Assembly: GCA_965243135.1 (NCBI GenBank)
Contig: OZ251539.1
Span: 2,912,001-2,976,000 of the forward strand
DNA length: 64,000 bases
Origin: Alphaproteobacteria bacterium
GTDB lineage: Bacteria; Pseudomonadota; Alphaproteobacteria; MPNO01; UBA830
Reading direction: 5' to 3'
Below, one piece after another: positions 11,591 to 34,225 of this stretch. A model generated the notes under the pieces. The model did not search any database. It saw only the letters and a list, made by a program, of their open reading frames with translations, and had not been told where the DNA came from. Position 1 is the first letter of the stretch, and every line of letters starts with the position of its first letter. The position numbers and the translations under genes are program-made.

Positions 11591-12159
11591 TCCGCCGCTT
11601 CGCCTTCCTCGCGGCGCTCGCCGCGCCTTCCGCCGCTTCCGCGCAGAACCCCGGCGCCGCCCTCGTCTCGCTCGCCCGCGACCTCGATCCCGGCCTCTCG
11701 GCCCTCGTCTCCGGCGTCTGCTACCTGCTGGCCTTCGTCGCCCTGGCCCAGGGGCTGTTGCGCCTCCTCAAGACCTCCGAGGACAAGTTCCACGCCCCGT
11801 CCCTCGCCGGCACCGCGCTGTGCTTCCTGATTTGCGCCGTCCTCGCCGCCTTTCCCTCGTGGATCGACGCCGCCGGGGAGACGCTGTTCGGCGCCTCCCG
11901 CCGACCCTCGGCCGTCCTCGCGTACGCGAACGCCCGGGACGGCAGGTGGAACGACCTGATCCTCGCCGCCTTCTGGGCGGTGTCGTGGGTCGGGCTGTTC
12001 GCCTTCCTGCGCGGCGTTTTCATGATGCGCGCGGCCGCCGACGGGCGCGCCGGCGCCACCGCCGGGCGCGCCGCGATGCACATGTTCGGCGGCGTCCTCG
12101 CCTGGCACATGGCCGCGTTCGTCGACGCCGTCCGGTCCTCCCTCGGTATCTTGCAGTGA
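11587..12159 (+). CDS. IcmC/DotE/TraQ-like inner-membrane protein
   Basis: Four TM helices, 'VGLFAFLRG', 'HMFGGVLA'; position between dotG and dotO. Confidence 0.65.
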   Translation: MIRRFAFLAALAAPSAASAQNPGAALVSLARDLDPGLSALVSGVCYLLAFVALAQGLLRLLKTSEDKFHAPSLAGTALCFLICAVLAAFPSWIDAAGETLFGASRRPSAVLAYANARDGRWNDLILAAFWAVSWVGLFAFLRGVFMMRAAADGRAGATAGRAAMHMFGGVLAWHMAAFVDAVRSSLGILQ

Positions 12160-17402: not shown

Positions 17403-19640
17403 GTGCGCGCCGTCCTCCGGCTTCTCTTCCTGCCCGAACTCGGTCGGTCCTTCCGCGACCTCCGGAGATCGGCCGCGAGGCTGTCCGGTCTGGCGAAGGC
17501 GCTCGCCCCCGTGCCGCAGCGGGCATTGCGCAACCCGTTCGCCCCCGGCCTGCGCGCCCGCGCCCTCGCCGGCGCCGCGGTCGCGCTGCTCGGCGCCGCG
17601 CTGCTGGTCCTCTTCGCCGCCGGCGTCCTCGCTTCCGCGGCGGCGCAGACGGTCGACCTGTTCGCCGAGGAGGACGCGGGCACGCGCCGGCTGCTCGCCT
17701 TCCTCGCCGATCTGCGGACCGAGCGCGACTCGGCCCTCGGCGGCATGCTCTTCGTCTACAACGCCGCGGTCCTCGTCCTCTCCGGCTTCCTCCTGATCTG
17801 GCACGTCGCCGCCGGCGCCGTCGACACCGCCCGCGAGGGACGGCTCGGCCTCGGCGGCTGGGAGATCCTGCGCATCGTCCTCGCCGTCGCCGCCATGGCG
17901 CCCCTTCCCGGCGGCATGAACGCCGCCCAGCACGCCGTCGTCGGCCTCGCTCATCTCGGCGGCGACTTCGCCACCGCCGTCTGGCGGCCGTTCTCCGCCG
18001 AGGCGCTGCGCGGCGGCAAGCCGATCGCTCCCCGACCCCGCGCCGCCGCCTGGCGCGCCGCCGTCTCGCGCGTCCTGATCGCCGAAACCTGCATGCACGT
18101 CGCCAACGCCGCCGCCCGAGCGCCGCTCGTCGTCGTCCGCGCCGCCGACGAGAAGACCGCCCGCGTCGTCCGCTACGACGGCGATCGCCGCGGCCTGCCC
18201 AGGGAAATGTGCGGCGCCGTCCGCTACCGCGGACTCCATGTCCGCAAGATACGGCCCGACCGGTCTTCCGCCTTCGGCTTCGACATGCTCAACCAGACCG
18301 AATACGTTCCCGCCGAAGGCCCGCGCGGCGACGCCGCGCGGGCGCACTACGCGGCGCTCGAGGGGCTGCGCCCGCATCTCCGCCTGCGCGCCGTCCGCCT
18401 CGGCGACCGCTTCGTGCCCGGAAACGCGGCCTACGGCCGCCCGCTGCCCGACCTCGACGCCTTCCTCGCCGGCCTCGCGGACGATTACGCCCGAGCGCTC
18501 GACGCGGCGCTGCGCAGCGCCGCGGCCGACGAGCGCGACGCCCTCGAAAAGGCGGTCGCCGACGACGCCGAAAGGCGGGGCTGGCTGTCGGCCGCCGCCT
18601 TCTTCAACACCGTCGCCCGCCGCACCGGGGCGTTCCAGACGTCGGCCTGGAACCTGCCCGACGCGGCGCTTCCCGCCGGCAGCCTCGAGGGCGCCTCGAA
18701 GCCGGCCGCCGCCGCCGTGCAGGCGCTCACCGTCGCCCTCGCCCAGACCCGCGGCTGGAAGCCCGTCCTGTTCGGCGGCGGCGCGCTGCCCTCGTCGGGC
18801 GGCGACGGCGGCGTCGGCGCCGGGTTGTGGGACTGGCTGTCGATCGACGCCGCGTCCCTTCCCGACAGCGGCAACCCGATCGCCGATCTCGCCGGATACG
18901 GCCACGACCTCCTGTTCAACGCCATGACCGCCATCGGCGCCCTCGCCGCCGCCGCGACCGTCTCCGGCGGCTTCCGGTCCGTCCCCTTCGTCGGCAGGGG
19001 CCTCGACCTGTTCGGGCACGGCTGGCAGGTCGCCGACAGCTTCGTCTCCACCATCCTCGGCATCTTCCTCGTCGCCGGCGCGATCCTCGCCTACCTCCTG
19101 CCCGCCGTCCCCTTCCTCCGCTTCCTGTTCGCCGTCCTCGCATGGGCGATCGACGTCGTGGCCGCCGTCCTCGCCGTCACCGCGTTCGCCGCCGCCCACG
19201 TCACCCGCGGCGACGGCAACGCCCTCGCCACGCAGGCCACCCGCCAGGGCTGGCTGTTCCTGCCCGGCCTGATCCTGCGCCCGCCCCTGACGCTGTTCGG
19301 CCTCGTCGCGGGCTACTTCGTCTTCCTCGCCGCCATGGACCTCTTCAACGAGGTCTGGAAGCCGCATCTGCGCGACGCCAACGCCTCCGACGGCCTCGGC
19401 ATCGTCGGATACCTCGCCTACCTCGCGATCTACGTCATGACCGCCTGGGCCCTTCTGAACGCCGCCTTCAAGCTCGTCGACGGCCTGCCCGCCGCCGCCG
19501 TCGAATGGATCGGCGGCCGCGCCGGAGCGCAGGGCGTCGACGCCGACCGTCTCGGCGGCGCCGTCACCGCCGGCATCGGCCGCATGTCCGGACTCCGCGT
19601 CGGGTCGCTCCGCACCGGCGGCGCCCGCCCGCCGCCCTGA
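17403..19640 (+). CDS. dotA: DotA/TraY polytopic membrane protein
   Basis: 'VDTAREG', 'GWLSAAAFF', 'AYLLPAVPF', 'LRPPLTLFGL', 'LP....WIG'. Confidence 0.9.
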   Translation: MRAVLRLLFLPELGRSFRDLRRSAARLSGLAKALAPVPQRALRNPFAPGLRARALAGAAVALLGAALLVLFAAGVLASAAAQTVDLFAEEDAGTRRLLAFLADLRTERDSALGGMLFVYNAAVLVLSGFLLIWHVAAGAVDTAREGRLGLGGWEILRIVLAVAAMAPLPGGMNAAQHAVVGLAHLGGDFATAVWRPFSAEALRGGKPIAPRPRAAAWRAAVSRVLIAETCMHVANAAARAPLVVVRAADEKTARVVRYDGDRRGLPREMCGAVRYRGLHVRKIRPDRSSAFGFDMLNQTEYVPAEGPRGDAARAHYAALEGLRPHLRLRAVRLGDRFVPGNAAYGRPLPDLDAFLAGLADDYARALDAALRSAAADERDALEKAVADDAERRGWLSAAAFFNTVARRTGAFQTSAWNLPDAALPAGSLEGASKPAAAAVQALTVALAQTRGWKPVLFGGGALPSSGGDGGVGAGLWDWLSIDAASLPDSGNPIADLAGYGHDLLFNAMTAIGALAAAATVSGGFRSVPFVGRGLDLFGHGWQVADSFVSTILGIFLVAGAILAYLLPAVPFLRFLFAVLAWAIDVVAAVLAVTAFAAAHVTRGDGNALATQATRQGWLFLPGLILRPPLTLFGLVAGYFVFLAAMDLFNEVWKPHLRDANASDGLGIVGYLAYLAIYVMTAWALLNAAFKLVDGLPAAAVEWIGGRAGAQGVDADRLGGAVTAGIGRMSGLRVGSLRTGGARPPP

Positions 19641-19655
19641 CGGAAAGGAAACCCC

Positions 19656-19850
19656 GTGCCGTTCGTCCCGCTCCTCGCGGCGCCCGCCGCGGCGCAGCTC
19701 CCCGCCCCCGGGGCCGCCGCCCTCCGGACGGACGACGACGACCTCGCCCGGCGCGCCGCCGCCTTCCGCAACGGGGCGCTCGCCGGGCGCAACGGGAACC
19801 CCGAGACCGGCAACGCGGCGCCGCGCCGCAGGATCCTCGAGTGCCGGTGA
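19656..19850 (+). CDS. Small hypothetical protein (64 aa)
   Basis: RBS AAAGGA, GTG start, stop overlaps virD4 start (GTGA). Confidence 0.35.
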   Translation: MPFVPLLAAPAAAQLPAPGAAALRTDDDDLARRAAAFRNGALAGRNGNPETGNAAPRRRILECR

Positions 19851-21748
19851 CCGCCCGCGCCGCCGCCCTCCTGCCGGCCGCCGCCGGCTTCGCGTGGTCG
19901 GCCCGGCTCCTCGCCGGCGATCCCCCGGCCGACGTCGCCGCGATCGTCCTCGCGGCGGCGCTCGCCGTCTCGCTCGCCGCCTTCGTCGCGATTCCCCGCA
20001 GGACGGCGCCCGTCTGGCGCCTCTCGCTGCACACCGCGGCCCTCGCGGTTTCCGCGACCGTCGCATGGATCGCCGTCCTGCCGGCGCTTCTCTCGCGTCC
20101 AGCCGCCTGGCTGTCCTCCCTGCACCGCTTCGACGCCGCCGGGCTCGTCCTCGCCGCCTCGCCGGTCGCCGCGGCGCTCGCGCTGTGGCTGTGGACCGAC
20201 GCGCTGGCCGCGGCCGCCGTCCGCGGGCGGGACGGGAAACGCAAGCGCGCGAAATCCGTGCTCTACGGCAAGGCCCGGCTGCTCGGGCCGTCCCACGTGC
20301 GGGCCCTGTCGCGCCGCAGCGGCATCCTGCTCGGCCAGCGCGGCCCGGGAAGGGCCTCGCCTCTGATTGCGTGGAACCTCGAAGGCTGCGCCGTCACCGT
20401 CGCGCCGCCCCGCACCGGCAAGGGCGCCGTCATCGCCCTCAACTACCTGTCGCCCGGCGGCAGGGGCTTCTCCGGCTCGACCGTCCTCGTCGACCCCCGC
20501 GGCGAGACCTTCTGCGTCGTCGCCCGCAGGCGCCGCGAAATGGGCAGGCGCGTCGTCCTCCTCGATCCCTTCGGGGTGGCGGCGCAGCACGCGGAACAGT
20601 TCGGCGGCGCGGTCCATTTGCCGGACGCGGAGTCCGCCCGCTACAACCCTTTCGACTTCATCCGCGACGACGAGGCCCGCGCCGTCCGCGACATAAACGT
20701 GCTGCTCGACGCGCTGCTGACGCCGCCGGAAAGCAACGCCCACGCGAACTCGCGGCATTTCCACGAGAGCGCCCGCTCGCTGATCGCCGGATACATGGCC
20801 TGGATCCGCTTCCGCGAGCCGCCGCGCAAGCGGAATCTCGCGTTCCTCCACGAACAGCTCTCGAAGGGCGCGAAGGAGCAGGAGCTGTTCGCCCGACGCG
20901 TGGCGGCGACCGACCGCTTCTGCAGCGGCCTCGCGCATCTCGCCGTCGAACGCCAGTCGCGGGTCGGCAAGGAGGAGGGCGGCTCGAACTTCACGACGAT
21001 CGCCAACCAGCTCGCCTTCATGACCTATCCGGAGCTCGCGGCCCACACCGCCGCCTCGACCTTCGACCCGGTCGACATCGCCGCCGGCGACATGGACCTG
21101 TTCGTGGTCGCGCCGGAGGAGCTGCTCGACCACGTGCGCGGCTGGATCCGGCTGTGGATAACGATCCCGAACGCGGTTCCCGCCCGCCGCGCCCTCGAGC
21201 GCGACCTGCTCGTCGTCCTCGACGAGATGCCGCGGCTCGGCTACCTGAAGCCCGTCATGGACGGCTACAACATGGCGGCGGGAAAGGGGATCCACTTCTG
21301 GTCCTTCGCGCAGTCGATCTCGGCGCTCGACGCCACCTGGGGCAAGGAGCGCCGGACGACCCTCACGCATCTCGCCGAGGTCGTGCAGGTGCTGGGGTTT
21401 CCGCGGATGGACGCCGACGGCGCCGAGGAGTTGTCGAAGGCGATCGGCAGCGCGACCTGGGAGTCGCGGTCGGAGAACGTCTCCGGCACCGTCCAGGAGG
21501 GCCGCCTGATGGCATCGTCGCAGTCGCAGGCCGGCGAGACGGTGTCGACCGTGAAGGAACGACTGGTGACGCCCGACGACCTCATGACCATGGGCCCCGA
21601 CGAGCAGTACGTCGTCGCGACCGCGAAGGACATGCCGCGGGACGCGCTCCACCTCCGCCACGCGCGCTACTGGGCGCGGCCGGATTCGCGGCGGCTCGCC
21701 GACCCCAACCCGTTCGTGCTGCGGAAGCGGGCTGCCGCCGGCGCCTGA
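19847..21748 (+). CDS. virD4: VirD4/TraG-family type IV coupling protein
   Basis: N-terminal TMs, 'YGKARL', Walker A APPRTGKG, 'LVDPRGE', 'LDPFG', 'YNPFD', Walker B VLDEM, 'QSISAL', 'RLVTPDDL'. Confidence 0.88.
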   Translation: MTARAAALLPAAAGFAWSARLLAGDPPADVAAIVLAAALAVSLAAFVAIPRRTAPVWRLSLHTAALAVSATVAWIAVLPALLSRPAAWLSSLHRFDAAGLVLAASPVAAALALWLWTDALAAAAVRGRDGKRKRAKSVLYGKARLLGPSHVRALSRRSGILLGQRGPGRASPLIAWNLEGCAVTVAPPRTGKGAVIALNYLSPGGRGFSGSTVLVDPRGETFCVVARRRREMGRRVVLLDPFGVAAQHAEQFGGAVHLPDAESARYNPFDFIRDDEARAVRDINVLLDALLTPPESNAHANSRHFHESARSLIAGYMAWIRFREPPRKRNLAFLHEQLSKGAKEQELFARRVAATDRFCSGLAHLAVERQSRVGKEEGGSNFTTIANQLAFMTYPELAAHTAASTFDPVDIAAGDMDLFVVAPEELLDHVRGWIRLWITIPNAVPARRALERDLLVVLDEMPRLGYLKPVMDGYNMAAGKGIHFWSFAQSISALDATWGKERRTTLTHLAEVVQVLGFPRMDADGAEELSKAIGSATWESRSENVSGTVQEGRLMASSQSQAGETVSTVKERLVTPDDLMTMGPDEQYVVATAKDMPRDALHLRHARYWARPDSRRLADPNPFVLRKRAAAGA

Positions 21749-21787
21749 AACTGCTGCGGGAGCGTTCGCCTCCGCCGCCCCGGCACC

Positions 21788-21817
21788 TTGACTTACCAGC
21801 CAACCCATCCCCATACT
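21788..21817 (+). promoter_or_regulatory. Possible sigma70 promoter for the AT-rich cassette
   Basis: TTGACT-N18-CATACT about 150 bp upstream of 21965. Confidence 0.3.
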
Positions 21818-21964
21818 GCCTTGGTGACAAAGATTGCCAACCGTCGGCGTTGCGCTTCGGAGTTGAATAAGGGGCTTCACCTGATTCCAACCTGACCGGG
21901 CCAAATAGAACAACTCTACAGCAGGATAGTCTAAGAGCGACGCAACCAACCTAAGAATCGAGCG

Positions 21965-23158
21965 ATGTCAAATTATTTACACTTGAATAAAAACGTAACT
22001 CTTTCGTCTTTGGAGGAACAAATGCGCTCCGACACCTTCGGACGCAAAACCCTGTTCTTGTCGCACAACATAAAAGAAGGAGGCACTCTTGGTCGATCAT
22101 CAGCCGTAGCGCAGTTTATTGTAACATGGGCTCATTCCTCATCATCCCCGTGTATCAGAACATATGTTGATAATAGAACGGAAAATGAAAAACTCACTGA
22201 GAATATTTACACTGTAGCCGCCATATTTTTGGCTCAAGAAGTTTTCCCAAGAAAAACGGAAAGAAACTTGCGCGATGAGTTGTTGAGCGCAACACAAGAA
22301 CGAATAAAAAATATGTACATAGGAAACTTGAAATCCCTTGTTCGAGGCAGAAGAATTGAATTCATCTTCTTGGAAGGAAACGCAAATGAATTCCACATTC
22401 CGTTGTACGTAGAAATGCCAAAACGTTCCGATTTGCTAAATCGCCAGCGACATGGAGACATGGTAAATAATCCTTCAAGAATGAACAGTTTTATCGACAA
22501 ATGCTTGCAGGCAATAGAAATCAGAGGAGCCGCTGAAGGGACAGTTTTTTTGCAGAAATACCTTCACACACCTAAACAACCGCTTGGCCGTTTTCTCTAT
22601 GAATCGTTCCGTAACACCGCCGAGCATGCGTACCTTTCTGACGACGGAAAATTCACTGGAAATAGCTTACGGGCGATCACAATAGCACTTCGACCATCGA
22701 GCCCAGATCAGTTCGCTGAGACCTCTATATTGAGCGCTAACCACAAAAATGAAAAAAAATACCTCGAAACAATACTGGATAAATTTCGCGAAAAAGGTCA
22801 AAGACAACTCATCGGCATGCTAGAGATATCAATTCTGGATTCGGGACCTGGGTTCGCTCGAACCATCGAGGGAAAAAACAAAACCAATTCTAGCGACCAT
22901 GATCTCGTCGCTAAATGTTTTCATAAAAACATATCTGCAAAACATAACTCATCTGCAGGTTTAGGATTGAGTCGCATTTTGGAAGTAGTTAGAGATCTTA
23001 ACGGCTACCTTCGGGTCCGTACCGCAACGACGGAATTTTTTCTACCAGGAACAGACCCTTTGAATTTCGATCAATTTGATGCGAAGCGTCATATTCAATC
23101 TGGACTTCCAAAAATTCGAGGCACGCTGCTCACAGCATGCTTTCCACTTCTCTATTGA
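21965..23158 (+). CDS. GHKL (histidine-kinase-like) ATPase domain protein
   Basis: N box ESFRNTAEH, G1 DSGPGF, G2 AGLGL, 'GTLLT'; no TM or obvious H-box; much lower GC than flanks. Confidence 0.75.
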   Translation: MSNYLHLNKNVTLSSLEEQMRSDTFGRKTLFLSHNIKEGGTLGRSSAVAQFIVTWAHSSSSPCIRTYVDNRTENEKLTENIYTVAAIFLAQEVFPRKTERNLRDELLSATQERIKNMYIGNLKSLVRGRRIEFIFLEGNANEFHIPLYVEMPKRSDLLNRQRHGDMVNNPSRMNSFIDKCLQAIEIRGAAEGTVFLQKYLHTPKQPLGRFLYESFRNTAEHAYLSDDGKFTGNSLRAITIALRPSSPDQFAETSILSANHKNEKKYLETILDKFREKGQRQLIGMLEISILDSGPGFARTIEGKNKTNSSDHDLVAKCFHKNISAKHNSSAGLGLSRILEVVRDLNGYLRVRTATTEFFLPGTDPLNFDQFDAKRHIQSGLPKIRGTLLTACFPLLY

Positions 23159-25320
23159 TGCTCATGTCGATTTTTTTTACATCATTCGATCATAATATTG
23201 ACGGAAGATCCGAAAGAATTTCTGTCGTTTACCCGTCGGCGACAGTTAAATGGGAGCAAGAAATTGTCGATATTATAGACGATTTGACGAGGGGGCCATA
23301 TCCGCCTCGCAGATGCGTTTTTGTTTCACCGTTATGCCACTACAACGACATCGTGTCGGGGGTCCGGAACCGTTTTTCGGATATCAAGGATCGCTTAGGT
23401 GCGACGACGCATATTGTCGTCGCACCATATAAAAAGAACGGTCGCCTTTCGATAAATGATGTCGCTCAACCATACCAGGCCAGTGGTAGATGGCGGTTGA
23501 CCGACGAACATTTGACGGAATTCGCTCAGAAGTACGCCGCGGCAATATATGAAGAATCGAAGAGCAAATTGGTGGCGCCGCATGGTTATCAATTCCGTAA
23601 GCCGTCCGGACGTGCACGAACAGTATTCTTACGTGCGGAGAATATGCTGCACGAGCTAGATTCCGTAAACGTGTTCAATCATCTTCTTCTTCAAAAATGG
23701 ACAGATGAAATGAATACAATATATATTGACAGCTTCACGATTTCTTCTTTTGCGATGGGTCTGCAGCTACTAATATCACATTTTGAGGAAAATAACATCA
23801 GTAGAGTTCCAACGATCCAAAATTTTCGTTCCTATCAAAAAGTTAGTGACTTCAACTTTCCGATGCATGAAAATTATCTCGTCATTATATCAGCCTCTAC
23901 GAGTGGAGGTCTTGCAAGAAATTTGATTGAAAATCACGGTGCCGCGGAGAAGCGAATAGTACATTTAGTCGGTGCTGCCCCCGGCTCGGTTGCACCTAGC
24001 ACGGTTAAACAGTGGTTTCGTACGTCCTGTTTGTTTTTCGATGAACTCCCGGAGGAGACAACCCCTGCTGGCCCACAGCTCCAGGATATCAATATCCCAA
24101 CCGAGAAGTTCGTCGTTACTCCACCCGTGAGAGTGCGCATCACACAAAGACATGTCGAGGAAGCAAAGACATCAATGTTGGCGGACTCATTCTATAATGA
24201 TCATTTACATATAAAACAGTCGGGTCGGGATGCGGGCTATGGAAGATATCATTTGTTTTCAACCGTGCCGGATAAGGTAGAAATTTCTCCCGGTCTCAAT
24301 AAATGGATGAGTGCCGAATTAGTACATCAAGTACCAGGAAGTGCAAAAACAATTGTATACGGGAATGATAGTATTTCAAAAATTTTGGCAAATGAACTTA
24401 AACAAATCATCTCATGTAAAAAGATGATTTCAAGATTAAATCTTAAAAAATCTCGGATAAATTATAATGATAGTGACTCCATTGTTGTGGTCGTATATGA
24501 AGACTCTGAACTTGACGAACTAGCGGCCATATGTCAGACACTCCGTAAATGGCCTGAAACCTTTAAGCATTATGTTGTTTGTTATTCATTTCCGCAAACA
24601 AAGACAAAGTTTGAGGCCGTCCGCCAAGATTTGATTAAAGGAGAGAAAGAGAGGAAGTATGGTTGGTCTTCGTATTTAATCATGCCTATGGGATCAATGG
24701 ATATACATGATTCATGGCTGTCCGATTATCCTAAATTCACGTCGGAGAAAGTGAGTAACCTTTCAAGAGATTTGCCCAAGAAACTCCGAAAGTCCTTACT
24801 TGATAGGATCAGTGATTCTGATCGATTGCCCATTTTCTTTCCAAATATAAATGGAGACAGACTTATACTAAGAGATGGTTCCGTTTTTTTCCCAAATTCC
24901 GGAATGGAACACTCGCATGAATCGGTATACTTGGCTGTTTCGACGACTATCCAAGTTGCTCGGGAGGGAAAATTTGAAGATGGATTACGTTTTGATGATG
25001 ATCCTTTTTCCAACACCGTAATTGATCCGAGAATGTTTTCTCGTTACAATGACGGTATTCTCCAAGCGTCGTTACTTCGTGCCTTGAGGCCATCGGAACT
25101 CGATTTTTCGGGTGACGCCTTGATTAGCGGCGAGTTTACGGCCATTATTTTAAACATCATACAACATGCTCAAGAGACCATAGGGGAGGCAGCGTTGGAG
25201 TTTTTGGCGGCGCTAGCGACGAGAAAAATAGCGCTCAGAATGGAAGATTTTGATCGCGTGATAAATACCATTAAAGAGGATTTTATATTGAACGAAATTT
25301 GGAATTTGTTTCAGAAGTAG
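23158..25320 (+). CDS. Large protein with degenerate phosphoribosyltransferase-like domain(s)
   Basis: TGATG coupling to upstream gene; 'FRKPSGR...FLRAEN' hood-like motif, 'YLVIISASTSGGLA' PRPP-loop-like motif; AT-rich. Confidence 0.6.
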   Translation: MLMSIFFTSFDHNIDGRSERISVVYPSATVKWEQEIVDIIDDLTRGPYPPRRCVFVSPLCHYNDIVSGVRNRFSDIKDRLGATTHIVVAPYKKNGRLSINDVAQPYQASGRWRLTDEHLTEFAQKYAAAIYEESKSKLVAPHGYQFRKPSGRARTVFLRAENMLHELDSVNVFNHLLLQKWTDEMNTIYIDSFTISSFAMGLQLLISHFEENNISRVPTIQNFRSYQKVSDFNFPMHENYLVIISASTSGGLARNLIENHGAAEKRIVHLVGAAPGSVAPSTVKQWFRTSCLFFDELPEETTPAGPQLQDINIPTEKFVVTPPVRVRITQRHVEEAKTSMLADSFYNDHLHIKQSGRDAGYGRYHLFSTVPDKVEISPGLNKWMSAELVHQVPGSAKTIVYGNDSISKILANELKQIISCKKMISRLNLKKSRINYNDSDSIVVVVYEDSELDELAAICQTLRKWPETFKHYVVCYSFPQTKTKFEAVRQDLIKGEKERKYGWSSYLIMPMGSMDIHDSWLSDYPKFTSEKVSNLSRDLPKKLRKSLLDRISDSDRLPIFFPNINGDRLILRDGSVFFPNSGMEHSHESVYLAVSTTIQVAREGKFEDGLRFDDDPFSNTVIDPRMFSRYNDGILQASLLRALRPSELDFSGDALISGEFTAIILNIIQHAQETIGEAALEFLAALATRKIALRMEDFDRVINTIKEDFILNEIWNLFQK

Positions 25321-25332
25321 TGAGCGGCCACT

Positions 25333-25628
25333 CTAGTGTTGTGTCCCTTAAATAGATATTATATATCGGCGTGGGAAATTTTCAGGAGGAGGTCACCATG
25401 CCGAAAGGGAGGCCTGTCACGCCGCTCGTTCTCACTCAGGAAGCGCAACTGTGCAGCATTGCGAATGCAACGTCGCTGCCCTGATTCTGCGCGCCAGGAT
25501 CGTTCTGGAGTGCGCCTCGGGAATGTCGAACAGGGCGGTTGCCGAAAAGTTCGACGTTTCGCCGCTGACCGTGGGCAGATGGCGAAAGCGGTTTGTGGAA
25601 GGCGGGACCGAAGGACTGCACGACGAAT
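25333..25628 (+). mobile_element. IS630-family remnant (left end and frameshifted HTH region)
   Basis: End after CTAG; RBS and ATG at 25398 (MPKGRP..), then 'RARIVLECASGMSNRAVAEKFDVSPLTVGRWRKRFVEGGTEGLHDE'. Confidence 0.75.
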
Positions 25629-26170
25629 GGGTGCAAATCTGATATGGCTAAATCGAAGATTACATAAAACGTTGATTTTCAATGATTATCCAAGTCCGTG
25701 TCGCGGCGCTTCGGGGCCGAAATCAGCGATTTCGTGACAAAACGTCGTTCCGGGGGCGGATTTTGTCGCGATAGGGGAGTTGGAGAGCAAAAAAAGGAAT
25801 GCTCCAAGTGCGCGGCAGAATGTTGGCAGCAATACACAACATCATTCCCATGTCAGCATCACAGCCTTCGACCGGTTTGTCCTTCTCGGACCTTCCCGCG
25901 ACGACCGCCGAGGCGCTTCGGTCAGCCGCAACCTTCATCTGCAAAGAAATCGAACGACGGGAACAGGGTTCCGAGGCGTTCGCCGGTTTCGAGGCTGAGG
26001 GAGCATGCCTTCCTGTCGTGCGGCCGTAGGCGATTACATTGAAGCGCGGGACGACGAAGAAGGTCCGATTCACCGGGAGGGTCAGGTCTTCTACCGGGCT
26101 GCGCCGATGCCAAAAACCATCAATACGTTGTTCGGTCCGGTCACGTATTGCCGTTCTCGGTACCGCACCC
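25629..26170 (+). mobile_element. ISKra4-like remnant truncating the IS630
   Basis: Begins GGGTG exactly where the IS630 similarity stops; broken frames include 'NTLFGPVTYCRSRYR'. Confidence 0.45.
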
Positions 26171-27145: not shown

Positions 27146-30100
27146 CTAATCGTCTTTCACGTCATCGGCTCGCTCAAACCAGGACTGGTCGTCTCTGACG
27201 GTTTTTCTCAGATCCGGGCGGCTGAGGTAGCCGGCCAACCTGCGAAAGTGCCTTGTCATGGCCTTTAGATCGTTGAGGTCGCTTGCAGCGATTTCAATCA
27301 CTTCGCATCCTGTGTCGTTTCTCAAAAAATCGCGGATCAAGCGGTCGCGTTCCGCAGTCTCCGGGTTTCCATGCAGGTGTCGGCTTAGTCCGTCAAGATA
27401 AATGCAAACTCCCTCGTCTTCCTCGTCGCCAGGGTAGAATACGTCGGGCGTCGTCGTGCCGATCGCCCGGTCAAGACGGATCTGACGGCCGCGCACGCCT
27501 TCTTCGAAACCGGCCGCCAGAAGAAGCTGACGGAGCGTTCGTTCCGCCTGGTTCACGGGATACGACCCTTCCCGCGGTTCCTCGGAAGGCTGCCTGGACG
27601 GGATATCGTGCGATAATTCGAGAGCCGCCCCATAAGCCTCAAGCCGCAGGAGCGCCTCCCCCCGGTTCAAATGCTTGTGATAGTAGGCGTTGCGGAAGGT
27701 CTGGAGACAATCCACGCACGAACTCTCGCAAACGGAAGGGCAATCCTCCACCACTTCCCGCGCGACGTTGACCACCTCGCCGAAACGTTCCACGATCTGG
27801 GAGAGAAGGCCCGATCCTCCGGGCATCGGATCCCAGAGCAGGGCGTCGACCTCGTCGCGCTCCACGTACCCGACAACCAGGATCTGCAGATCGTCCATGT
27901 GCATGTCGAGAACCCGGGCCGCGGCGAAGCGAAGCGCCTCGAGCACGCTGAAAGCTACCGTCTGGTTTTCGCATGCCGGCAGCGACAGGACATCCGCGAC
28001 CACGTCTGCATAAAAACCGACCGGTGCGCATCTCTTTCCGCAACGCTCCTCGTGAGAGGCGACGAACCGGTCGTATTGGACACCCGAAGCAAGCGGAGAG
28101 ACGCTCTGGCCGCACACCGTGCACAGGGGGTATCCAAGACGGGCGAAACTCCCGATAGCGGAAGTTGCGCCGACATTGACCAACCGCAGGCGAACGCCGC
28201 GTCTGAGATGCAGGCTTTGTCCTCCCCAGTCGAAGGCGGTCCCCCCGTTGTGCTGGCCGCGCTCCAGACCGTGAACGGCCACTCCGAGCTGAAAGCGGAG
28301 TTCCTCCTCGTCGGAAATATGCGACCGATGGACCAGATCCACGTCGCAGACCGAAATGGTTCTCAAACGGCCGGCGCTCAATCCGGAGAGCTCCGTTCCG
28401 GCCTCGGTCTCCTTTACCGCCTGCCTTTCGGTCGATACCTCGAAGACCGGCATGTCGACCCGTTCCTCGTCGACATTCAGATGGAAACGCCGCGGGACGA
28501 ACCGGTGACCGTTCGCGTAAACGAGATTGCCCGGCACGTATTCCCGCAGCGCCAGACTCGGCGGCCGCGGCAACGCGAATTCCCCCACTCCGCTTTGCCA
28601 AAACGGGATCTCGGCCGTACCGAGGACCGAACCGATCTCAAGCCCGTAACCGGGAAGGAATCCTTCCGCGGCGAGAACTCCAAAGGTGTAGGCATCCTCG
28701 TAGCCTTCGGCCTCGTGCCGCATGCGCCGCCTTGTCTCCTTGAGGCGTTTGACGAGGCGATCGCAGCGCCGGAACAGGGCATCGTCCTCGGGTTCAAGAG
28801 CGCCGCGCTTCTCGCGCAGAACGTTCAGCCGCCGGATCTGGGTCATGGCCCACGCCAGCCGCCGGCGCAATCGGGCGATTACGTTTTCGAGTTGGTCCAC
28901 CATTCCGGCGACGTGGCCGCGCAACGCTTCCGGACTCGTCACTTCCGCGTCGGCATCCGGCCAGTTGCGGGAAAACGCCTTCTCCATGTACGCGACGAGA
29001 TCTTCGAGATCACGCTCGATCAATTTCCGCAGGGGCGACAAATCGAACGGCTCGGAACGGACGGCCTCGCCTTCGAACAGGTAGGCGCCGACCCGCGGCG
29101 GCAGGGCCTGGCCCAGCGCGGCCTCGATTCGCTCCCTGTCGGGCCGCGAGGGATCTCGCGCCCGTTGGTAAAGCCTGGTGATCGTTGCGGCGTGAACATG
29201 CTTGGCCACCATCAATTCGTTTCGCAGGTTGAACGCGGGCGGATCGACGCGGCCGGCCAGCATCTTGAGGGGCTCCGCGAAGTACGCGCGATCATGGGAA
29301 ACGGAACGGCAATAGGCCAGGTCCACGGCCATGCGGTGACGCCGTCCGGCCCGTCCGGCCCGCTGCCAATAGTTGGCCGGGAGCGGGGGCACGTTCCGCA
29401 TGAGCACCGCGTCGAGTTTGCCGATGTCCACGCCCAGTTCGAGCGTCGGCGTACAGACGAAGGCGTTGACGGCGTCCGATTCTCCCTTGAACAGGTTTTC
29501 GAGGCGTTCTCGCTCCTCGTTGGGGACCATCGCCGTGTGCTCCTCGGGGCGGAGCATCGAATAACCCTCGTCCAGAACCTGCAGGTCGTAGTTGTCCGGA
29601 TCTTCCGGGACGAATTCGATTTCGCCTTCGCAGCGCCATGCGGGGCATTTCCGAAGGGGCGTTCGACGGACTGTGCGGCGCCGGCAACTCCTGCAACGCC
29701 AAACGCCCTGATTGCCGCGCAGGCGGAGCCGGTCCGCATCCACCTGGTAAACCCGGCTGACGCCCGACAGAGATCTACCCTTGGCTCCCTTGAGCCGAAC
29801 GGGCTTGAGCACGCCGAACTCCGCGAGACAGCCGAACAACTCCTCAAGGAACTTTTCGGCGTTCTCCGGCAGTACGCCCCACTTCCTCGCCATCTGCCGG
29901 ATCGTCGTATCGCCCCGGTCGCTGAGCCACTGGGTCACGAGTTGAGGCTTTTCGTCGCGCTCGCGACGCAGCTTGGTTCCCGTGGGGTTGCCGAAGCGAG
30001 GCAGGTACCCCTGCTGTATCTCTAGGTCGCCTTCCAACCAATACCTGGAAAAAATCTCCTGTTCCGGGTCGTGCAGGACGCGCTTGCGGCGGAGGTAATC

Positions 30101-32545
30101 GAGCAGGCTGGCCACTCCTTCGTGGAATTCCTCGGGAGCGAGAGCCAATCGATCCGCCGTCGCCCGGGATAACGCAGCGGTCAGGCCCTCGTATTCGACC
30201 TTCATGCGCCCCCAAGGCTCGAGCCCCACCGGCTGGCGGGCGGACTGGGTTACTTCGCGCAGCACCTGAATGCGCAGGAATTTTCGGCGTTCCTGCCCGT
30301 GCCTTCCGCCCCCGCCTTCCTTGCGGACGACCTGCCATACTTCGGGCACGAGCGCGCGCGACAGCGTTTCGTCCCGCTCCAGAACGTCATCCATGTACAG
30401 GGCGAGGTCGCCGACGGAAACCGGACCATCCTTCATTCCCTCGGCCATCAGGGAACGCAAGCGGTAGCGGCGGGCGTGGTCCTTCATCCACCCCGCCTGG
30501 AAAGCGGCATCCTGCCGATTGTCGCAAAAGACCAGCAGCCGGGGCCGTTCGGAGTGGTGCACCATGTCCTGGGCGAGAACGTGCACGTCGGCCACGTGAG
30601 TGGCGCGAACCGGCCGAGCCGGCTCCCGGTACCGCCCGTTGATCCTCCTTCCGGTCGCTCCGCATGAAAGACAACTCGCGAGGAAGCCCGGGTTGTCCTT
30701 CTTTTGCCGCACCGCGAACAATTCGACGCTCTCGCCTGTCCGTCCGCATCCGCGGCACCGGGTCACGGCGTCGGGATGAGCCGTTCCGCAGCGACGGCAA
30801 AAGTAAAGGGGACTGGTGCGGTCGTGCCGGTCGATGTCCTCGTCGGCGCTGCCCCCGACGATTCTGTCCGTCAGGACGACGCGGCGGCCGCCATGGGTTT
30901 CCTCCAGAGGCTTCCAGTAGGTCGCCTCGCCGGCCGCCTCGCCGCCGCCCGGCGCCTTGCCGTCGAATTCGAAGTCCTTGAGGAAGGCGACGAAATAGTG
31001 CTGACCGCAGGTGGTGCACGTCGTCACCGGAAAATGCGCGTGCGCGTTCTCTTCGGCGGCCGCCTCGTCTTCCGCGGCCAGCCACAGCCTGGGGCCGTTG
31101 CCCTCCTCGGGAAAGCTCGCCACCGCTCCGCCGATGCCCCTCACGAAGCCGTGCAGCACCGGACGAAGAAGCGGCCTGCCCGCCGCGCTCGCCGCCGCTC
31201 CGAGAGTCAGCCAGCAGAGGATCTCGGCTTCGTCCACGGACCGGCCGATAACGGGCTCAAGTTCCGGGGGCAGCTCGTTCAGCGCGCACGGAGAAGCCAG
31301 CGCCTCGTTGAGCCGATAGACAAGTTCGTTGCCGGACAAGGCGGCGTACAGCGCGTCCTGCCAATTGCCGGCGGGAAGCGGCGCGCCGGACAGGTCTTCG
31401 AGCGCGCCGCCGACGGCCGTTCCCGGATCGGTCTCGTCGTCCACGGCGCGGACGCAACGGGCGAGGAGTTCGGCCGGATCGATCGCCGGAGCCGGCGGCA
31501 GAGAGCGGGCTTCCGTCCAGATCTCGGGTTCGTAGGACTCGTTCACCGTAACGACTTCGTCCTTCGGGACGCCGAAGAACCGCGCCGCGAAATCCCGCGC
31601 GGCGTCGGGACTGGACCGGTCCGCGATGGTCGCCGATGTCGCGACGCAGACCGTTTCGTTCGCCCCGCAAAAGGTTCTCAGCCGGCGGATCAGGCAGGCC
31701 GTCTCGGCGCCCTGGGCGCCGGTGAACGTGTGAGCTTCGTCGAAGACGAGGAAATCGAGGCGGGCGTCGGCGAACAGGCCGATATCCTGCTGCCGGGTCA
31801 GCAACAACTCCAGTTGCTTGACGTTGGTCAGGAGGACGCGGGGCTGCCGGCCCGGCGCGCGCATGATCTCGCGGGAGCAGACCTCCTCCGGCGGATAGAC
31901 GGTTTCGCTGCGTTTCTCTTTCCTCACCTTGGCGAGCTCGGCCTCGTAATCGGCCTGCGACGCCCCGGCGGGCAGGCGGATGCCGGCCACCTGTTTCTCC
32001 TGTTCCGGCGTCTTGCCCACGTACATCCCGAACGGAATGCCCGTTCCGGCGAGAAGGGAGCGCAAACGGCCGAGCTGATCCTCGGCCAGTGCGTTCATCG
32101 GGTAGACGATCACCGCGCTGACGCCCGGAGCGGTTTCCCCGTCGCGCAAATCGAGGCACTTGCTGATGATCGGGTAGAGAAAGGCCTCGGTCTTGCCCGA
32201 ACCCGTCCCGGTCGACACCAGCGTCGTTTTTCCGGAGCGGATGGCCCGGACCGCTTCCTCCTGATGGCCGTAGAGTCGGGAGATCTCCGCCGGAATTCGC
32301 TGGCGCATGTGAGGGTGGAAAACTCCGTCGCGAACCAGTTCGTCGATGGCCGCGCCGAGACGGAAGGAACGCGAGAGGCTGACGTAGGGGCCCTTGAGCA
32401 GAGGCGAGTCGCGGGTCGAATCGAGGGAGAGCAGGCGATGCATCTGAGCGCGCATGCCCTCGTCGACGAAGGGGTAGGCCGTCAGCTGGTATCGCAGAAA
32501 ACTGCGGACGACTTTTTCCGTAAAAACGACGGGGTTCAGGGCCAT
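27146..32545 (-). CDS. DEAH-box helicase with DUF1998 (MrfA-like Zn) domain and C-terminal Vsr/DUF559-like nuclease; DrmA/DrmB-like fusion
   Basis: TGTGSGKT, DEAH, TSAT, TLELGVDIG, QRAGRAGR, 'DPMPGGSG', 'CESSCVDCL', 'TTPDVFY...IYLDG...HLHG...RDRLIR'. Confidence 0.88.
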   Translation of the reverse strand: MALNPVVFTEKVVRSFLRYQLTAYPFVDEGMRAQMHRLLSLDSTRDSPLLKGPYVSLSRSFRLGAAIDELVRDGVFHPHMRQRIPAEISRLYGHQEEAVRAIRSGKTTLVSTGTGSGKTEAFLYPIISKCLDLRDGETAPGVSAVIVYPMNALAEDQLGRLRSLLAGTGIPFGMYVGKTPEQEKQVAGIRLPAGASQADYEAELAKVRKEKRSETVYPPEEVCSREIMRAPGRQPRVLLTNVKQLELLLTRQQDIGLFADARLDFLVFDEAHTFTGAQGAETACLIRRLRTFCGANETVCVATSATIADRSSPDAARDFAARFFGVPKDEVVTVNESYEPEIWTEARSLPPAPAIDPAELLARCVRAVDDETDPGTAVGGALEDLSGAPLPAGNWQDALYAALSGNELVYRLNEALASPCALNELPPELEPVIGRSVDEAEILCWLTLGAAASAAGRPLLRPVLHGFVRGIGGAVASFPEEGNGPRLWLAAEDEAAAEENAHAHFPVTTCTTCGQHYFVAFLKDFEFDGKAPGGGEAAGEATYWKPLEETHGGRRVVLTDRIVGGSADEDIDRHDRTSPLYFCRRCGTAHPDAVTRCRGCGRTGESVELFAVRQKKDNPGFLASCLSCGATGRRINGRYREPARPVRATHVADVHVLAQDMVHHSERPRLLVFCDNRQDAAFQAGWMKDHARRYRLRSLMAEGMKDGPVSVGDLALYMDDVLERDETLSRALVPEVWQVVRKEGGGGRHGQERRKFLRIQVLREVTQSARQPVGLEPWGRMKVEYEGLTAALSRATADRLALAPEEFHEGVASLLDYLRRKRVLHDPEQEIFSRYWLEGDLEIQQGYLPRFGNPTGTKLRRERDEKPQLVTQWLSDRGDTTIRQMARKWGVLPENAEKFLEELFGCLAEFGVLKPVRLKGAKGRSLSGVSRVYQVDADRLRLRGNQGVWRCRSCRRRTVRRTPLRKCPAWRCEGEIEFVPEDPDNYDLQVLDEGYSMLRPEEHTAMVPNEERERLENLFKGESDAVNAFVCTPTLELGVDIGKLDAVLMRNVPPLPANYWQRAGRAGRRHRMAVDLAYCRSVSHDRAYFAEPLKMLAGRVDPPAFNLRNELMVAKHVHAATITRLYQRARDPSRPDRERIEAALGQALPPRVGAYLFEGEAVRSEPFDLSPLRKLIERDLEDLVAYMEKAFSRNWPDADAEVTSPEALRGHVAGMVDQLENVIARLRRRLAWAMTQIRRLNVLREKRGALEPEDDALFRRCDRLVKRLKETRRRMRHEAEGYEDAYTFGVLAAEGFLPGYGLEIGSVLGTAEIPFWQSGVGEFALPRPPSLALREYVPGNLVYANGHRFVPRRFHLNVDEERVDMPVFEVSTERQAVKETEAGTELSGLSAGRLRTISVCDVDLVHRSHISDEEELRFQLGVAVHGLERGQHNGGTAFDWGGQSLHLRRGVRLRLVNVGATSAIGSFARLGYPLCTVCGQSVSPLASGVQYDRFVASHEERCGKRCAPVGFYADVVADVLSLPACENQTVAFSVLEALRFAAARVLDMHMDDLQILVVGYVERDEVDALLWDPMPGGSGLLSQIVERFGEVVNVAREVVEDCPSVCESSCVDCLQTFRNAYYHKHLNRGEALLRLEAYGAALELSHDIPSRQPSEEPREGSYPVNQAERTLRQLLLAAGFEEGVRGRQIRLDRAIGTTTPDVFYPGDEEDEGVCIYLDGLSRHLHGNPETAERDRLIRDFLRNDTGCEVIEIAASDLNDLKAMTRHFRRLAGYLSRPDLRKTVRDDQSWFERADDVKDD

Positions 32546-32557
32546 GGGCGTTCCTAA

Positions 32558-34225
32558 CCCGGATATCTCACCACTACTGGTTGCATGGGGCCCCCGATTC
32601 GCAATACATATAGAAGAATCAACCCACTACACGACCTGCGAAAGGAAACCCCACAGACTGTAAACCGTTGCAGCTTGAGTTTCAAGGCCTCGGAAGCCGC
32701 AAGGTGGTCGGCGATTTCGAGGGCGGCCGGCTCAGCACCGATGGCGCGGCGCGACGCTGCTGCGCCAGGCCGACGCGCTGCTCAACCTGACGCCGCGAAT
32801 CGCAGCTTGATGACCACCGATGCCAGGAACGCCTCGAGCATCCGGTGCAGCGGCTGGTTTCGCAACGGCTGTTCGGTATTTTACAGGGTTACGAGGATGT
32901 CAACGATCACGATTCGGGCCGACAGCGTGCTGGCGCTGGCCGTCGGGTGCACCGACCTGACCGGGGAGGAGCGGGTTCGGGAACGCGACCGCGGCATTCC
33001 GTTGGCCGGTTCGAGCACCTTGAACCGGGCTGGGCGTTCCCGGCGAAGCCGAGACGCACCGGTACAAGAAGATCACGGCCGGAGCGCTGGACGATCTCAA
33101 GCCTGTCCCTCGACGCCTGTCCGTCGCCGCCGAAAGAGATCTGGCTGGACGTCGACTCCACCGACGACCTGGTGCATGGCAACCAGGAGGGGCGTCACTT
33201 CCACGGCTACTACGACTCTTACTGCTACCTTCCGCTTTACATGGGACGACCTGATTTTGTGCTCGCGGTTGCGGCCTGCGAACGTCGACCCGGCGGCGGG
33301 CACGGCGGAGGAATTGGCGTGTGGAGCGCATTCGCGATCGCTGGCCCGGAGACCGGGGTTCGCGGCGACGGCGGCTTTTGCCGCGACGAACTCATGACGT
33401 GGTGCGAAGACAACGGGGTCGACTACCTGTTCGGCCTGTCCCGCAACCCCCGCCTGGCGGAGCGCATCGCCAGGCAGTTGCGCAAGTCGCGCCGCCGCTG
33501 CCTCTCGACCGGCGAGTCGTCGCGGCGGCTCTGCGACTTTCGTTACCGGACCCGAAGGTCGTGGAGCCGGACGCGGCGGGTGGTCGCGAAGGGGCTGCCG
33601 GATCCTCGCGGCCTCAACGCCCGCTTCGTCGTGACTTCGCTGGGCTGCAAGCGGGCGGGGGCGCAGGCTCTCTACGAGGACCTGTACTGCGCGCGCGGGG
33701 AGAACCGCGGAGCAGCAGCCTATTCGCCGACCGGACCTCGACCGCGACCGGCGAACCAGTTGCGCCTCGACTTTGCGACGTTCGCCAGCCGTGGCGGCGA
33801 TTCGGAGGGTCGGCCTGGCCGGCACCGGGGAGGACAGGGCGCAGGCCGGAACGATTCGGACGAAACTCCTCAAGGTCGCCGTCTGCGTTCGGAGGGTTCT
33901 GCTCTCGTTTTCGTCGGTCTGGCCCTGGAAGGATCTGTTCGTCCGGGTCCTGGCGAACCTGCAGGCGGCTGCGCCGCCAGCCCCGACCTGACGCCGCTCG
34001 CGGCCCCGACAGCCCTTTTTCGAAAGCCGGAACGCCGGCCACGGGACAGGTATGTTCGGGTACCGGATTCCACGGCGTCGGAGTCGTCCGCAACCGCTAA
34101 AGTTCGTGTTTCGTTCACAAAAAATCCTTGCTTGCCGACTGCGCCCCGCTTTTCCCGGCTCGCCGGTCGTTCCGAAAACCGCGCCCGTAACCCGAATCCA
34201 GCCCCCTGATTCGCTCTGATGCGGG
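32558..34225 (+). mobile_element. IS1380-family element with frameshifted transposase
   Basis: 'QRLFGILQGYEDVNDHD', 'LDVDSTDDLVHGNQEGRHFHGYYDSYCYLPL', 'RGDGGFCR', 'YCARG'; ends CCCGGATATCTCA / degenerate ..TGCGGG; CTAA duplicated at 32554 and 34226. Confidence 0.9.

Follow-up and report, generated by a model that had tools for sequence, protein, structure and literature searches.

Immediately downstream of a block of type IV secretion system (T4SS) genes, an alphaproteobacterial chromosome carries two coupled genes of low guanine-plus-cytosine (GC) content, here called A and B, and the question raised by this locus is what the pair is and what it does. The pair lies in a stretch of 64,000 nt at chromosome positions 2,912,001-2,976,000, hereafter the window, in which position 1 is the first letter. 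From the letters of this stretch, the original prediction had proposed an uncharacterised defence system consisting of a GHKL ATPase (A) and a phosphoribosyltransferase (PRTase)-like protein (B), in which a kinase/ATPase switch might control an effector that senses or depletes nucleotides. Our analysis indicates that the cassette is an intact, horizontally acquired and divergent member of the PADLOC family PDC-M65, most likely acting as an autonomous anti-phage or anti-mobile-element module.

Identity and distribution of the A-B cassette

The cassette and its upstream region comprise the following features:

21749..21964, + strand: intergenic DNA from the virD4 stop to gene A, within which the GC content falls (sequence read and GC profile)
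21965..23158, + strand: gene A, PDC-M65A-like, 397 aa (open reading frame, ORF; PADLOC PDC-M65A)
23158..25320, + strand: gene B, PDC-M65B-like, 720 aa (ORF; PADLOC PDC-M65B)
23156..23160, + strand: TGATG stop/start overlap coupling A and B (sequence read)

Both proteins were compared with the models of PADLOC-DB v2.0.0. Protein A matched PDC-M65A (E 3.8e-25, 86.6 bits, residues 6-358 against profile positions 5-343 of 398) and protein B matched PDC-M65B (E 3.5e-60, 202 bits, in two stretches), these being the sole PADLOC matches of either protein at E ≤ 1. Five further A-B pairs from other species match the same two models alone, and the five other pairs checked share gene order, strand and lengths (~395 + ~740 aa) with the pair studied here. 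With 87 + 202 bits, the scores of the window pair are low beside those of a Myroides pair (511 + 1033 bits). By the sole operational definition of the family, namely that both models are matched by adjacent genes, the pair is a member of PDC-M65, and judged by its sequence it is best described as a divergent branch of that family. The original prediction, which could find no named system for the pair and had counted such a match against its novelty, is superseded in this respect by the matches to PDC-M65A and PDC-M65B. The existence of the system is already catalogued; new here are the domain map and a list of residues for mutation. PDC stands for "phage defence candidate" and, in the accessible part of the source, denotes 145 single- or multi-gene candidates that derive from genes located inside BREX, DISARM and type I restriction-modification (R-M) systems and are included in PADLOC (Payne et al., bioRxiv 10.1101/2024.01.29.577857).

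In a protein collection clustered at 90% identity, B has 82 relatives (396-1260 aa searched), with at most 40% identity and without a precomputed Pfam domain in any of them, while A has 37 relatives, the nearest being 38-39% identical. Overall, the identity of the window pair is about 40% with its nearest relatives and falls to about 25% with most of the family. A HMMER search over 1.84 billion representatives (50% identity) returned 1601 family proteins at E ≤ 1e-3 and 845 at E ≤ 1e-30, and the best 150 of these matches align end to end over ~700-790 aa, fragments aside. Family positions conserved in at least 95% of sequences are all kept in the window copies (24 of 24 in B, 11 of 11 in A). 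Because of these relatives and the kept positions, A and B are real genes and not chance frames. Here and below, conservation was measured over 76 sequences for A and 81 for B.

Searching one genome per species gave 261 stretches that encode relatives, from Pseudomonadota, Bacteroidota, Verrucomicrobiota, Planctomycetota, Acidobacteriota, Cyanobacteria and one actinobacterial metagenome-assembled genome. From these, 80 loci were kept for neighbourhood counts. A homologue of A lies directly upstream of B on the same strand in 77 of the 80, and in the three misses the contig ends within 350 nt of B, so that the pairing holds in 77 of 77 testable loci. The stop of A and the start of B overlap by 4 nt in 22 of the 77 and by 1 nt in 12 (34 together), and in 25 they are 1-12 nt apart; the remaining junctions are artefacts of the first-in-frame-start rule or, in one case, a 35-nt gap. 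Across the 80 loci only A and B are conserved, the next neighbour clusters being type I R-M subunits present in at most 12 loci each. A and B thus form a strict two-gene operon, which is usually translationally coupled. Fusion of the two was not seen, all 82 relatives of B measuring 501-773 aa within the length range searched. One Pseudomonas contig (L025) carries two different A-B pairs, at 8784-12130 (+) and 17825-21218 (-), 5.7 kb apart and in opposite orientation; their A proteins score 1.9e-95 and 2.7e-42 against the profile of A, making them paralogous PDC-M65 systems within one island.

The junction in the window reads TTGATG, with the TGA stop of A at 23156-23158 and the ATG of B at 23158-23160, a 1-nt overlap; the two intact ORFs joined by TGATG are therefore as originally claimed. 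An in-frame ATG upstream, at 23137, would extend B from 720 to 727 aa. For gene A, the protein collection holds a 378-aa product starting from the second methionine (22022). The ATG at 21965 is favoured by the family alignment, in which the first residues of the homologues themselves align with residues 1-19 of the window protein.

The GC content, profiled in 500-nt windows, is 0.69-0.81 over 19.5-21.75 kb and falls to 0.478 at 21750-22249 and 0.412 at 22000-22499. Since the virD4 stop is at 21746-21748, the abrupt GC drop that had been noticed after this stop is borne out. The minimum (0.368) is reached at 24250-24749, after which values rise to 0.50 at 25250 and 0.64 at 26250 and stay at 0.50-0.65 beyond 25.25 kb. 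The A/B block as a whole has 37-48% GC, with flanks of about 70-80% upstream and 55-65% downstream. At third codon positions GC is 0.39 in A and 0.42 in B, as against 0.89-0.97 in the upstream T4SS genes, 0.75-0.81 in the downstream DISARM-like genes and about 0.9 in the host. With respect to the 6.1-Mb chromosome, the cassette is clearly foreign. Its promoter region presumably lies within 21749-21964; a scan for promoters and terminators gave sites no commoner than in shuffled sequences, among them a sigma-70-like site at 21788-21817.

Domain architecture of the two proteins

The following domains were delimited in the two proteins, all encoded on the + strand:

A, residues 1-143 (21965-22393, +): alpha/beta domain of unmatched fold (AlphaFold model)
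A, residues 144-397 (22394-23155, +): GHKL/Bergerat ATP-binding domain (VIA-align, motifs)
B, residues 1-120 (23158-23517, +): variable N-domain
B, residues 121-333 (23518-24156, +): phosphoribosyltransferase (PRT)-fold domain 1, with the conserved pocket S150, D191, S225, S245-A246 and S249
B, residues 334-515 (24157-24702, +): PRT-fold domain 2, degenerate
B, residues 516-720 (24703-25317, +): conserved helical C-domain

Protein A, in its AlphaFold model (35 sequences; pLDDT 87.1, pTM 0.91), is predicted to be a soluble two-domain protein whose GHKL domain is of the type found in stand-alone kinases and in the catalytic and ATP-binding (CA) domains of histidine kinases. Sequence families place it only loosely, HATPase_c of Pfam reaching E 0.05 at best, which is below cut-off, and NCBIfam giving nothing significant for either A or B. 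A Foldseek search with the model returned nothing at E ≤ 0.001, the best match being the CA domain of CckA (E 6.4e-3). When the model was aligned by VIA-align with 48,161 chains, all 50 of the 50 matches listed were GHKL proteins (Z 9.9-6.8), covering residues 127/144-397. The anti-sigma kinase SpoIIAB (1l0o_A) aligned with Z 9.9, a root-mean-square deviation (rmsd) of 3.5 and 139 aligned residues, followed by the CA domains of CckA (5idm_B, Z 9.6) and WalK (Z 9.1); further anti-sigma kinases were 8ih8_C (Z 8.2), RsbW 6m36_A (Z 7.6) and 3ke6_B (Z 7.2), and the ATPase domains of topoisomerase, Hsp90 and MutL scored at about Z 7.

The GHKL motifs claimed for A are present, with an N box E213...N217, a G1 box D292-x-G294-x-G296 and a G2 box G332-x-G334, and the G3 Gly-Thr is also present. 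N217, D292, G294, G296, G332, G334 and G386 are conserved in at least 95% of sequences and E213 in 85-95%. As these residues are conserved, the ATP site is, judging by its motifs, intact. In the first domain of A, the Gly-rich loop around G40-G43 is conserved, and a helix carries Q50, T54 and W55; the mean column conservation of this domain (0.35) is only somewhat lower than that of the GHKL domain (0.44). In a profile search of the PDB, matches of A to TNFAIP8 and to a designed protein (E 0.004-0.018) were judged to be chance.

It had also been stated that A lacks a transmembrane segment, a clear H box and a response regulator, and this was confirmed on each count. The highest Kyte-Doolittle 19-mer averages, 0.93 in A and 1.42 in B, do not indicate a transmembrane-like segment; no HisKA family was found in Pfam at E ≤ 1, and the region preceding the GHKL domain is modelled as alternating beta/alpha elements and not as a helical hairpin. 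Within the N box, H221 does not vary among the 35 aligned sequences, whereas no histidine reaches 85% in the 76-sequence set. No response regulator is conserved near the pair in the 80 loci, nor was a receiver domain found by Pfam in seven neighbour-cluster representatives. A is not a two-component sensor kinase, since it lacks HisKA or a dimerisation and histidine phosphotransfer (DHp) domain, a transmembrane segment and a conserved response regulator.

Protein B is predicted from its model (57 sequences; pLDDT 89.8, pTM 0.82) to be soluble and to consist of four domains, among them two type I PRT folds in tandem and a highly conserved helical C-domain. Foldseek matches of probability 1.0 were orotate phosphoribosyltransferases (OPRTases; E 5.5e-4 and weaker). 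VIA-align applied to the Foldseek list placed xanthine and adenine phosphoribosyltransferases (XPRT, APRT), OPRTase and PurR onto residues 334-513 with Z up to 12.5, the values for domain 2 being Z 12.5 (rmsd 3.2, 152 aligned) with XPRT 2fxv_A and Z 12.3 with APRT 6hgq_B. In an exhaustive VIA-align of B against the 48,161 chains, PRT-fold proteins took every one of ranks 1-40 (Z 12.0-7.8), after which Z fell to 6.9, so the PRTase fold proposed for this gene stands. Domain 1 superposes on the OPRT domain of UMP synthase (3qw4_C) over residues 121..303 with Z 10.2, rmsd 4.1 and 160 aligned residues, and the same chain also superposes on 335-511 with Z 10.8. Because PRT proteins superpose on both 121-303 and 334-513, B has two PRT folds in tandem. 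The second domain, suspected earlier near IVVVVYED (441-448), is hence real and a better structural match (Z 12.0-12.5) than the domain holding ISASTSGG (243-250; Z 10.2). An hhalign comparison of domain 1 with domain 2 gave a local P of 0.008 over 57 columns, which is no more than suggestive of an internal duplication. Among the structural matches of B are non-catalytic PRT-fold regulators that bind PRPP (phosphoribosyl pyrophosphate) or ppGpp, namely PurR, PyrR and a ppGpp-binding protein. In the ESM Atlas, the sole lead for residues 133-333 was a Pribosyltran cluster (rank 23, score 0.82), and residues 530-720 had no usable match among the named clusters. Matches of B to histone PARylation factor 1 in the PDB profile search (E 0.66-0.81) were rejected as chance.

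The PRPP-binding motif of active type I PRTases consists of a hydrophobic strand, two acidic residues and a Thr/Ser-Gly phosphate loop. In domain 1 of B, a strand (240-247) is followed in the model by the loop S245-A246-S-T-S249-G-G and a helix, and six residues are conserved in at least 95% of sequences: S150 (in FRKPSG, 146-151), D191, S225, S245, A246 and S249. The pattern and the secondary structure suggest that the invariant Ser-Ala (S245-A246) occupies the place of the acidic dyad, in line with the earlier remark that ISASTSGG lacks the usual acidic pair. In domain 2, the conservation singles out R463 alone; the window copy carries E447-D448, neither of which reaches 85% in the family, and no Gly loop follows. 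With Ser-Ala in domain 1 and, in domain 2, an unconserved Glu-Asp that lacks a Gly loop, B is not a canonical PRTase, and domain 1 looks like a preserved ligand pocket. The C-domain holds a further, dense cluster of conserved residues (R602, F627, R629, D632, G633, Q636, R641, E647, S657, G676, E681, A685). Mean column conservation is lowest in the N-domain (0.30 vs 0.45-0.46 for PRT domain 1 and the C-domain). For A 1-143, B 1-120 and B 516-720 there was no fold match among the matches listed, which the GHKL and PRT domains filled; this is not evidence of new folds.

One alternative is that the pair is of a housekeeping kind, a two-component sensor histidine kinase next to an active purine or pyrimidine salvage PRTase. 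The weak HATPase_c match and the PRTase structures would agree with it, but the features missing from A, the lack of PF00156 in B, and an acidic dyad that is absent from domain 1 and unconserved in domain 2 all speak against it. The genome has its own pyrE elsewhere, and of 41 genomes searched with the profile of B only the window's own gave a match, the other 40 being relatives drawn from its genus, family and order. We consider this explanation scarcely tenable.

A second alternative would make A the effector, as a SpoIIAB/RsbW-like Ser/Thr kinase that, when released, would phosphorylate proteins of the phage or the host, and B no more than its regulatory, nucleotide-sensing inhibitor, whose PRT domains would be neither catalytic nor toxic. 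SpoIIAB as the best structural match of A (with the other anti-sigma kinases also listed), the fully conserved ATP site, the lack of a recognisable effector domain in B and the non-catalytic PRPP- or ppGpp-binding regulators among its structural matches are all in accord with it. However, the Z values of SpoIIAB and of the CA domains are tied within 1 unit, and the fold thus does not show kinase specificity; moreover, the C-domain and the domain 1 pocket of B are the most conserved parts of the pair, beyond what a simple inhibitor needs, and no substrate is known. We regard such a kinase output as unlikely.

Genomic surroundings and proposed role

The genes flanking the cassette in the window are as follows:

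19901..21748, + strand: virD4-type coupling protein gene, the end of the high-GC T4SS block (Pfam T4SS-DNA_transf E 3.4e-39, TraG-D_C E 4.3e-21)
25451..25639, + strand: 63-aa transposase-type helix-turn-helix (HTH) fragment in the decayed stretch after B (HTH_28 E 1.9e-12, HTH_Tnp_1 E 3.8e-4)
27146..32545, - strand: 1799-aa DEAD + Helicase_C + MZB/DUF1998 helicase, DruE/DrmA-like, convergent with B (Pfam DEAD 4.1e-22, Helicase_C 2.8e-11, MZB 2.5e-9)
32845-34206: DDE_Tnp_1_4 transposase, between the helicase and methyltransferase genes
34226-39382, - strand: DrmMI/type IIG methyltransferase (PADLOC DrmMI E 6.4e-124)
39220-42444, - strand: DrmD (PADLOC E 1.8e-194)
50167-51426, - strand: DrmC (PADLOC E 2.7e-121), separated from DrmD by ~7 kb of other genes

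The claim that the neighbouring DNA is decayed holds in part, for the downstream stretch of 25.3-27.1 kb, where the transposase fragment is located and where six other tested ORFs (25.8-27.0 kb) have no Pfam family. The helicase matches DruE3 (6.4e-104) and DrmA (2.9e-13) in PADLOC, the DruE models outscoring DrmA as if DrmA and DrmB were fused. Together, the helicase, DrmMI, DrmD and DrmC genes of 27146-51426 make up a DISARM class-1-like set, and the surroundings are a defence island on an integrated conjugative-type element.

Several other genes of the window were recorded. A 212-aa ORF (42623-43261, -) matches only the C-terminal 40% of the PADLOC HEC-07 models (E 9.1e-34) and is probably a truncated Hma-embedded candidate gene. 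A Vsr mismatch endonuclease (44654-45124, -; E 3.6e-30) hints at a lost or separate cytosine methyltransferase. The 1665-aa product of 52084-57081 (-) shows a weak NACHT match (E 5e-5, below cut-off) and no PADLOC match; it adjoins a 534-aa tetratricopeptide repeat (TPR) protein (58953-60557, +) and may be a further STAND-type immune sensor of the same island. Within the T4SS block, just before virD4, a 745-aa ORF (17403-19640, +) has many hydrophobic stretches and no Pfam family at E ≤ 0.001, and could encode a divergent VirB6/TrbL-type channel protein.

To see which genes accompany the pair elsewhere, we counted type I R-M components within 10 kb with our own hidden Markov models, built from neighbour clusters and identified by Pfam. 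A component is present in 20 of the 80 loci and all three subunits in 12, the usual order by median offsets being hsdM-hsdS-hsdR-A-B on one strand; in L011 the pair is placed between hsdS and hsdR. Pfam analysis of 74 immediate upstream neighbours gave ResIII (8), SLFN_AlbA_2 (6), Methylase_S (2), integrase (2), Thy1 (2), BrxL (1) and HEPN (1), besides IstB and housekeeping enzymes, and PADLOC gave REase_I (6 per model). At one locus (L005, 5058-8588, +), the HsdR directly upstream of the pair has a fused C-terminal Schlafen/AlbA_2 domain (E 1.7e-18), and stand-alone proteins combining SLFN_AlbA_2, HATPase_c_4 and HTH lie upstream of the pair in five Bacteroidota loci (e.g. L047, 7067-8431). 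In a Labrys locus (L065), the pair is directly preceded by a gene (7627-8721, +) for a ThyX (Thy1) thymidylate synthase that has an N-terminal extension, and the cluster of this gene spans three loci; ThyX belongs to nucleotide metabolism, and a functional link to the pair may or may not exist. B-like genes were found on 11 of 72,556 plasmid records and in none of 50,697 phage records. Plasmid and genome records annotate the pair as "hypothetical protein" only, including both genes on a Pantoea megaplasmid.

These neighbourhoods bear on whether the pair acts alone. Its function might depend on a restriction-type system next to it (type I R-M, or the DISARM-like set here), with the pair as a guard that fires when this system is inhibited, for which PrrC in the EcoprrI locus offers an analogy. 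The recurrent hsd order, the insertion in L011 and the distance of only 1.8 kb between the window pair and the DISARM-like helicase gene fit such a dependence. Nevertheless, type I R-M lies within 10 kb in just a quarter of the loci (20/80), the partners differ (type I R-M, DISARM, BREX BrxL, SLFN/AlbA_2), and in the window the pair is convergent with the DISARM-like genes across decayed DNA. A dependent accessory role is therefore improbable, and the variety of partner systems favours an autonomous module.

A number of findings weigh against reading the cassette as a defence module of this kind. The defence context claimed for it is borne out by the DISARM-like set and by the type I R-M genes of 20 loci, but not by the other 60 of the 80, where none of the type I R-M components turned up within 10 kb. 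Seven of ten neighbours in the window's own sub-clade have no PADLOC match, and the Pantoea megaplasmid pair lies among GNAT, transporter and regulator genes. The likeness of B to PRTases is structural only: no Pfam family (including PF00156) was found for B at E ≤ 1, no PRTase appeared in the PDB sequence-profile search at E ≤ 10, and hhalign against an 18-sequence OPRTase profile from relatives of this genome gave P 0.12 for domain 1 and 0.005-0.008 for domain 2, so that the OPRTase "hood" resemblance in B is not significant by sequence (P 0.12). The assignment of Ser-Ala to the dyad place follows from the motif pattern and the strand-loop-helix context, not from residue-level superposition. 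No recognisable effector domain (nuclease, TIR, pore or protease) was found in A or B by Pfam, PADLOC or NCBIfam. The name "PDC-M65" is absent from the literature searched, and a search on PRTase, GHKL/HATPase and anti-phage defence yielded only papers concerning different systems. In the accessible part of their preprint, Payne et al. (bioRxiv 10.1101/2024.01.29.577857) call their 145 PDC systems untested. The record of other PDC candidates is mixed, as in one preprint four of eight protected E. coli, while PDC-M63AB and PDC-S04 gave no defence in the native host.

Part of this evidence is also what would be expected if the pair were not immune at all, but a selfish maintenance (addiction, toxin-antitoxin-like) or nucleotide-metabolism regulatory pair on mobile elements, with the defence neighbours reflecting shared hot spots. 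The foreign DNA next to T4SS genes and transposase remnants, the occurrence on plasmids, the non-defence neighbours on the Pantoea plasmid, the many loci lacking nearby type I R-M and the integrase, IstB and housekeeping genes upstream all agree with this. At 397 + 720 aa, though, the pair is far larger and more complex than typical addiction pairs, it is found within R-M operons or attached to them, reading in the same direction, the N-domain of B is variable as in sensors under diversifying pressure, and phage records lack it. We hold a non-immune role to be unlikely.

We favour the view that the pair is a defence module acting on its own, with an ATP-driven switch in control of a partner that binds a phosphoribosyl ligand; to this we give about an even chance, with far less confidence in any single step. 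PRT domain 1 would probably not carry out canonical PRPP chemistry but bind a phosphoribosyl compound, be it PRPP, a nucleotide or an alarmone, since it combines a conserved polar pocket and a Ser/Thr/Gly loop with Ser-Ala in place of the acidic dyad. Domain 2 would be a structural pseudo-enzyme. A may hold or release B through ATP binding or hydrolysis, or may phosphorylate B on Ser/Thr as SpoIIAB does with its partner, and the poorly conserved N-domains may set specificity. The output could be of an abortive-infection type, delivered by the C-domain of B or by the ligand pocket acting on nucleotide pools. A complex prediction for full-length A and B 133-720, run with custom alignments and no controls, scored 0.01 and bears neither way on binding. 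More specifically, and as a tentative proposal that we consider rather doubtful, the two may be an immune signalling pair, in which the tandem pseudo-PRTase would be the receptor of a metabolite with a phosphoribosyl group (for example PRPP, an alarmone or a nucleotide that the phage makes or depletes), gated by the stand-alone GHKL kinase/ATPase through phosphorylation or partner switching, with B 516-720 as the helical effector domain; R602, R629, D632, Q636, R641 and E681 are invariant in this candidate domain.

The family is large, occurs in many phyla under the annotation "hypothetical protein", and has been catalogued as a defence candidate without a described fold; the domain map and the invariant residues make it directly testable by point mutation. 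Should the pair defend, the pairing of a pseudo-PRTase with a GHKL protein would join the growing set of nucleotide-centred immune systems, and should it not, it would advise caution on guilt-by-association catalogues. If the pseudo-PRTase receptor proposal were true, this would be the first defence system to use a catalytically dead PRT fold as a sensor, with a helical effector domain previously undescribed.

Comparison with known systems

The closest relation is PDC-M65 itself, with which the window pair shares the two models, gene order, strand and lengths, and from which it differs by divergence (~40% identity to the nearest members, ~25% to most). With SpoIIAB/RsbW and the CA domains of histidine kinases, A shares the Bergerat fold (Z 9.9 for SpoIIAB, Z 8-9.6 for CA domains) and the N, G1, G2 and G3 motifs, and like SpoIIAB it has no DHp domain. 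In contrast to SpoIIAB/RsbW, A has an extra N-terminal alpha/beta domain of 143 residues, no sigma factor gene is conserved near the pair in the 80 loci (a STAS partner was not searched for by fold), and the Pfam kinase families remain below cut-off. Both central domains of B superpose on type I PRTases (XPRT, APRT, OPRTase) and on PRT-fold regulators (PurR, PyrR, PRPP-synthetase-associated protein), and domain 1 keeps the strand, the Ser/Thr/Gly loop and the helix at the place of the PRPP loop. B differs from these enzymes in lacking sequence membership, in a domain 2 devoid of the phosphate loop, and in having two PRT folds in tandem together with two further domains.

RADAR combines an AAA+ ATPase with an adenosine deaminase, and Detocs a true histidine kinase with a receiver domain and a purine nucleoside phosphorylase effector. 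Both resemble the present pair in joining an ATPase- or kinase-type regulator to a protein of nucleotide-metabolising fold, but there is no homology, and A and B match none of their PADLOC models. Besides PDC-M65B, no PADLOC model matched B at E ≤ 1, including the PsyrT model, which is present in the library, as the neighbouring helicase matched one; models for ShosT and the retron effector are presumably also part of PADLOC v2.0.0.

PRTases acting in defence, namely ShosT, PsyrT, the type III retron effector and Ophion OpnC, are summarised in the accessible part of a recent preprint, where they are reported to be catalytically required, OpnC mutants losing defence (bioRxiv 10.1101/2025.09.30.679545). 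As far as that part of the source describes them, the likeness lies in a PRT-fold protein encoded in a small operon of a defence island, and in both cases the output could plausibly interfere with nucleotide metabolism; their partners, however, are DprA-like, RecQ-like, a reverse transcriptase or a radical SAM plus PHP protein as against GHKL here, and B lacks the acidic dyad. By analogy, the pair may work like SpoIIAB/RsbW kinases, histidine kinases, type I PRTases and the known defence PRTases; it belongs to none of the last three groups, and probably not to the first.

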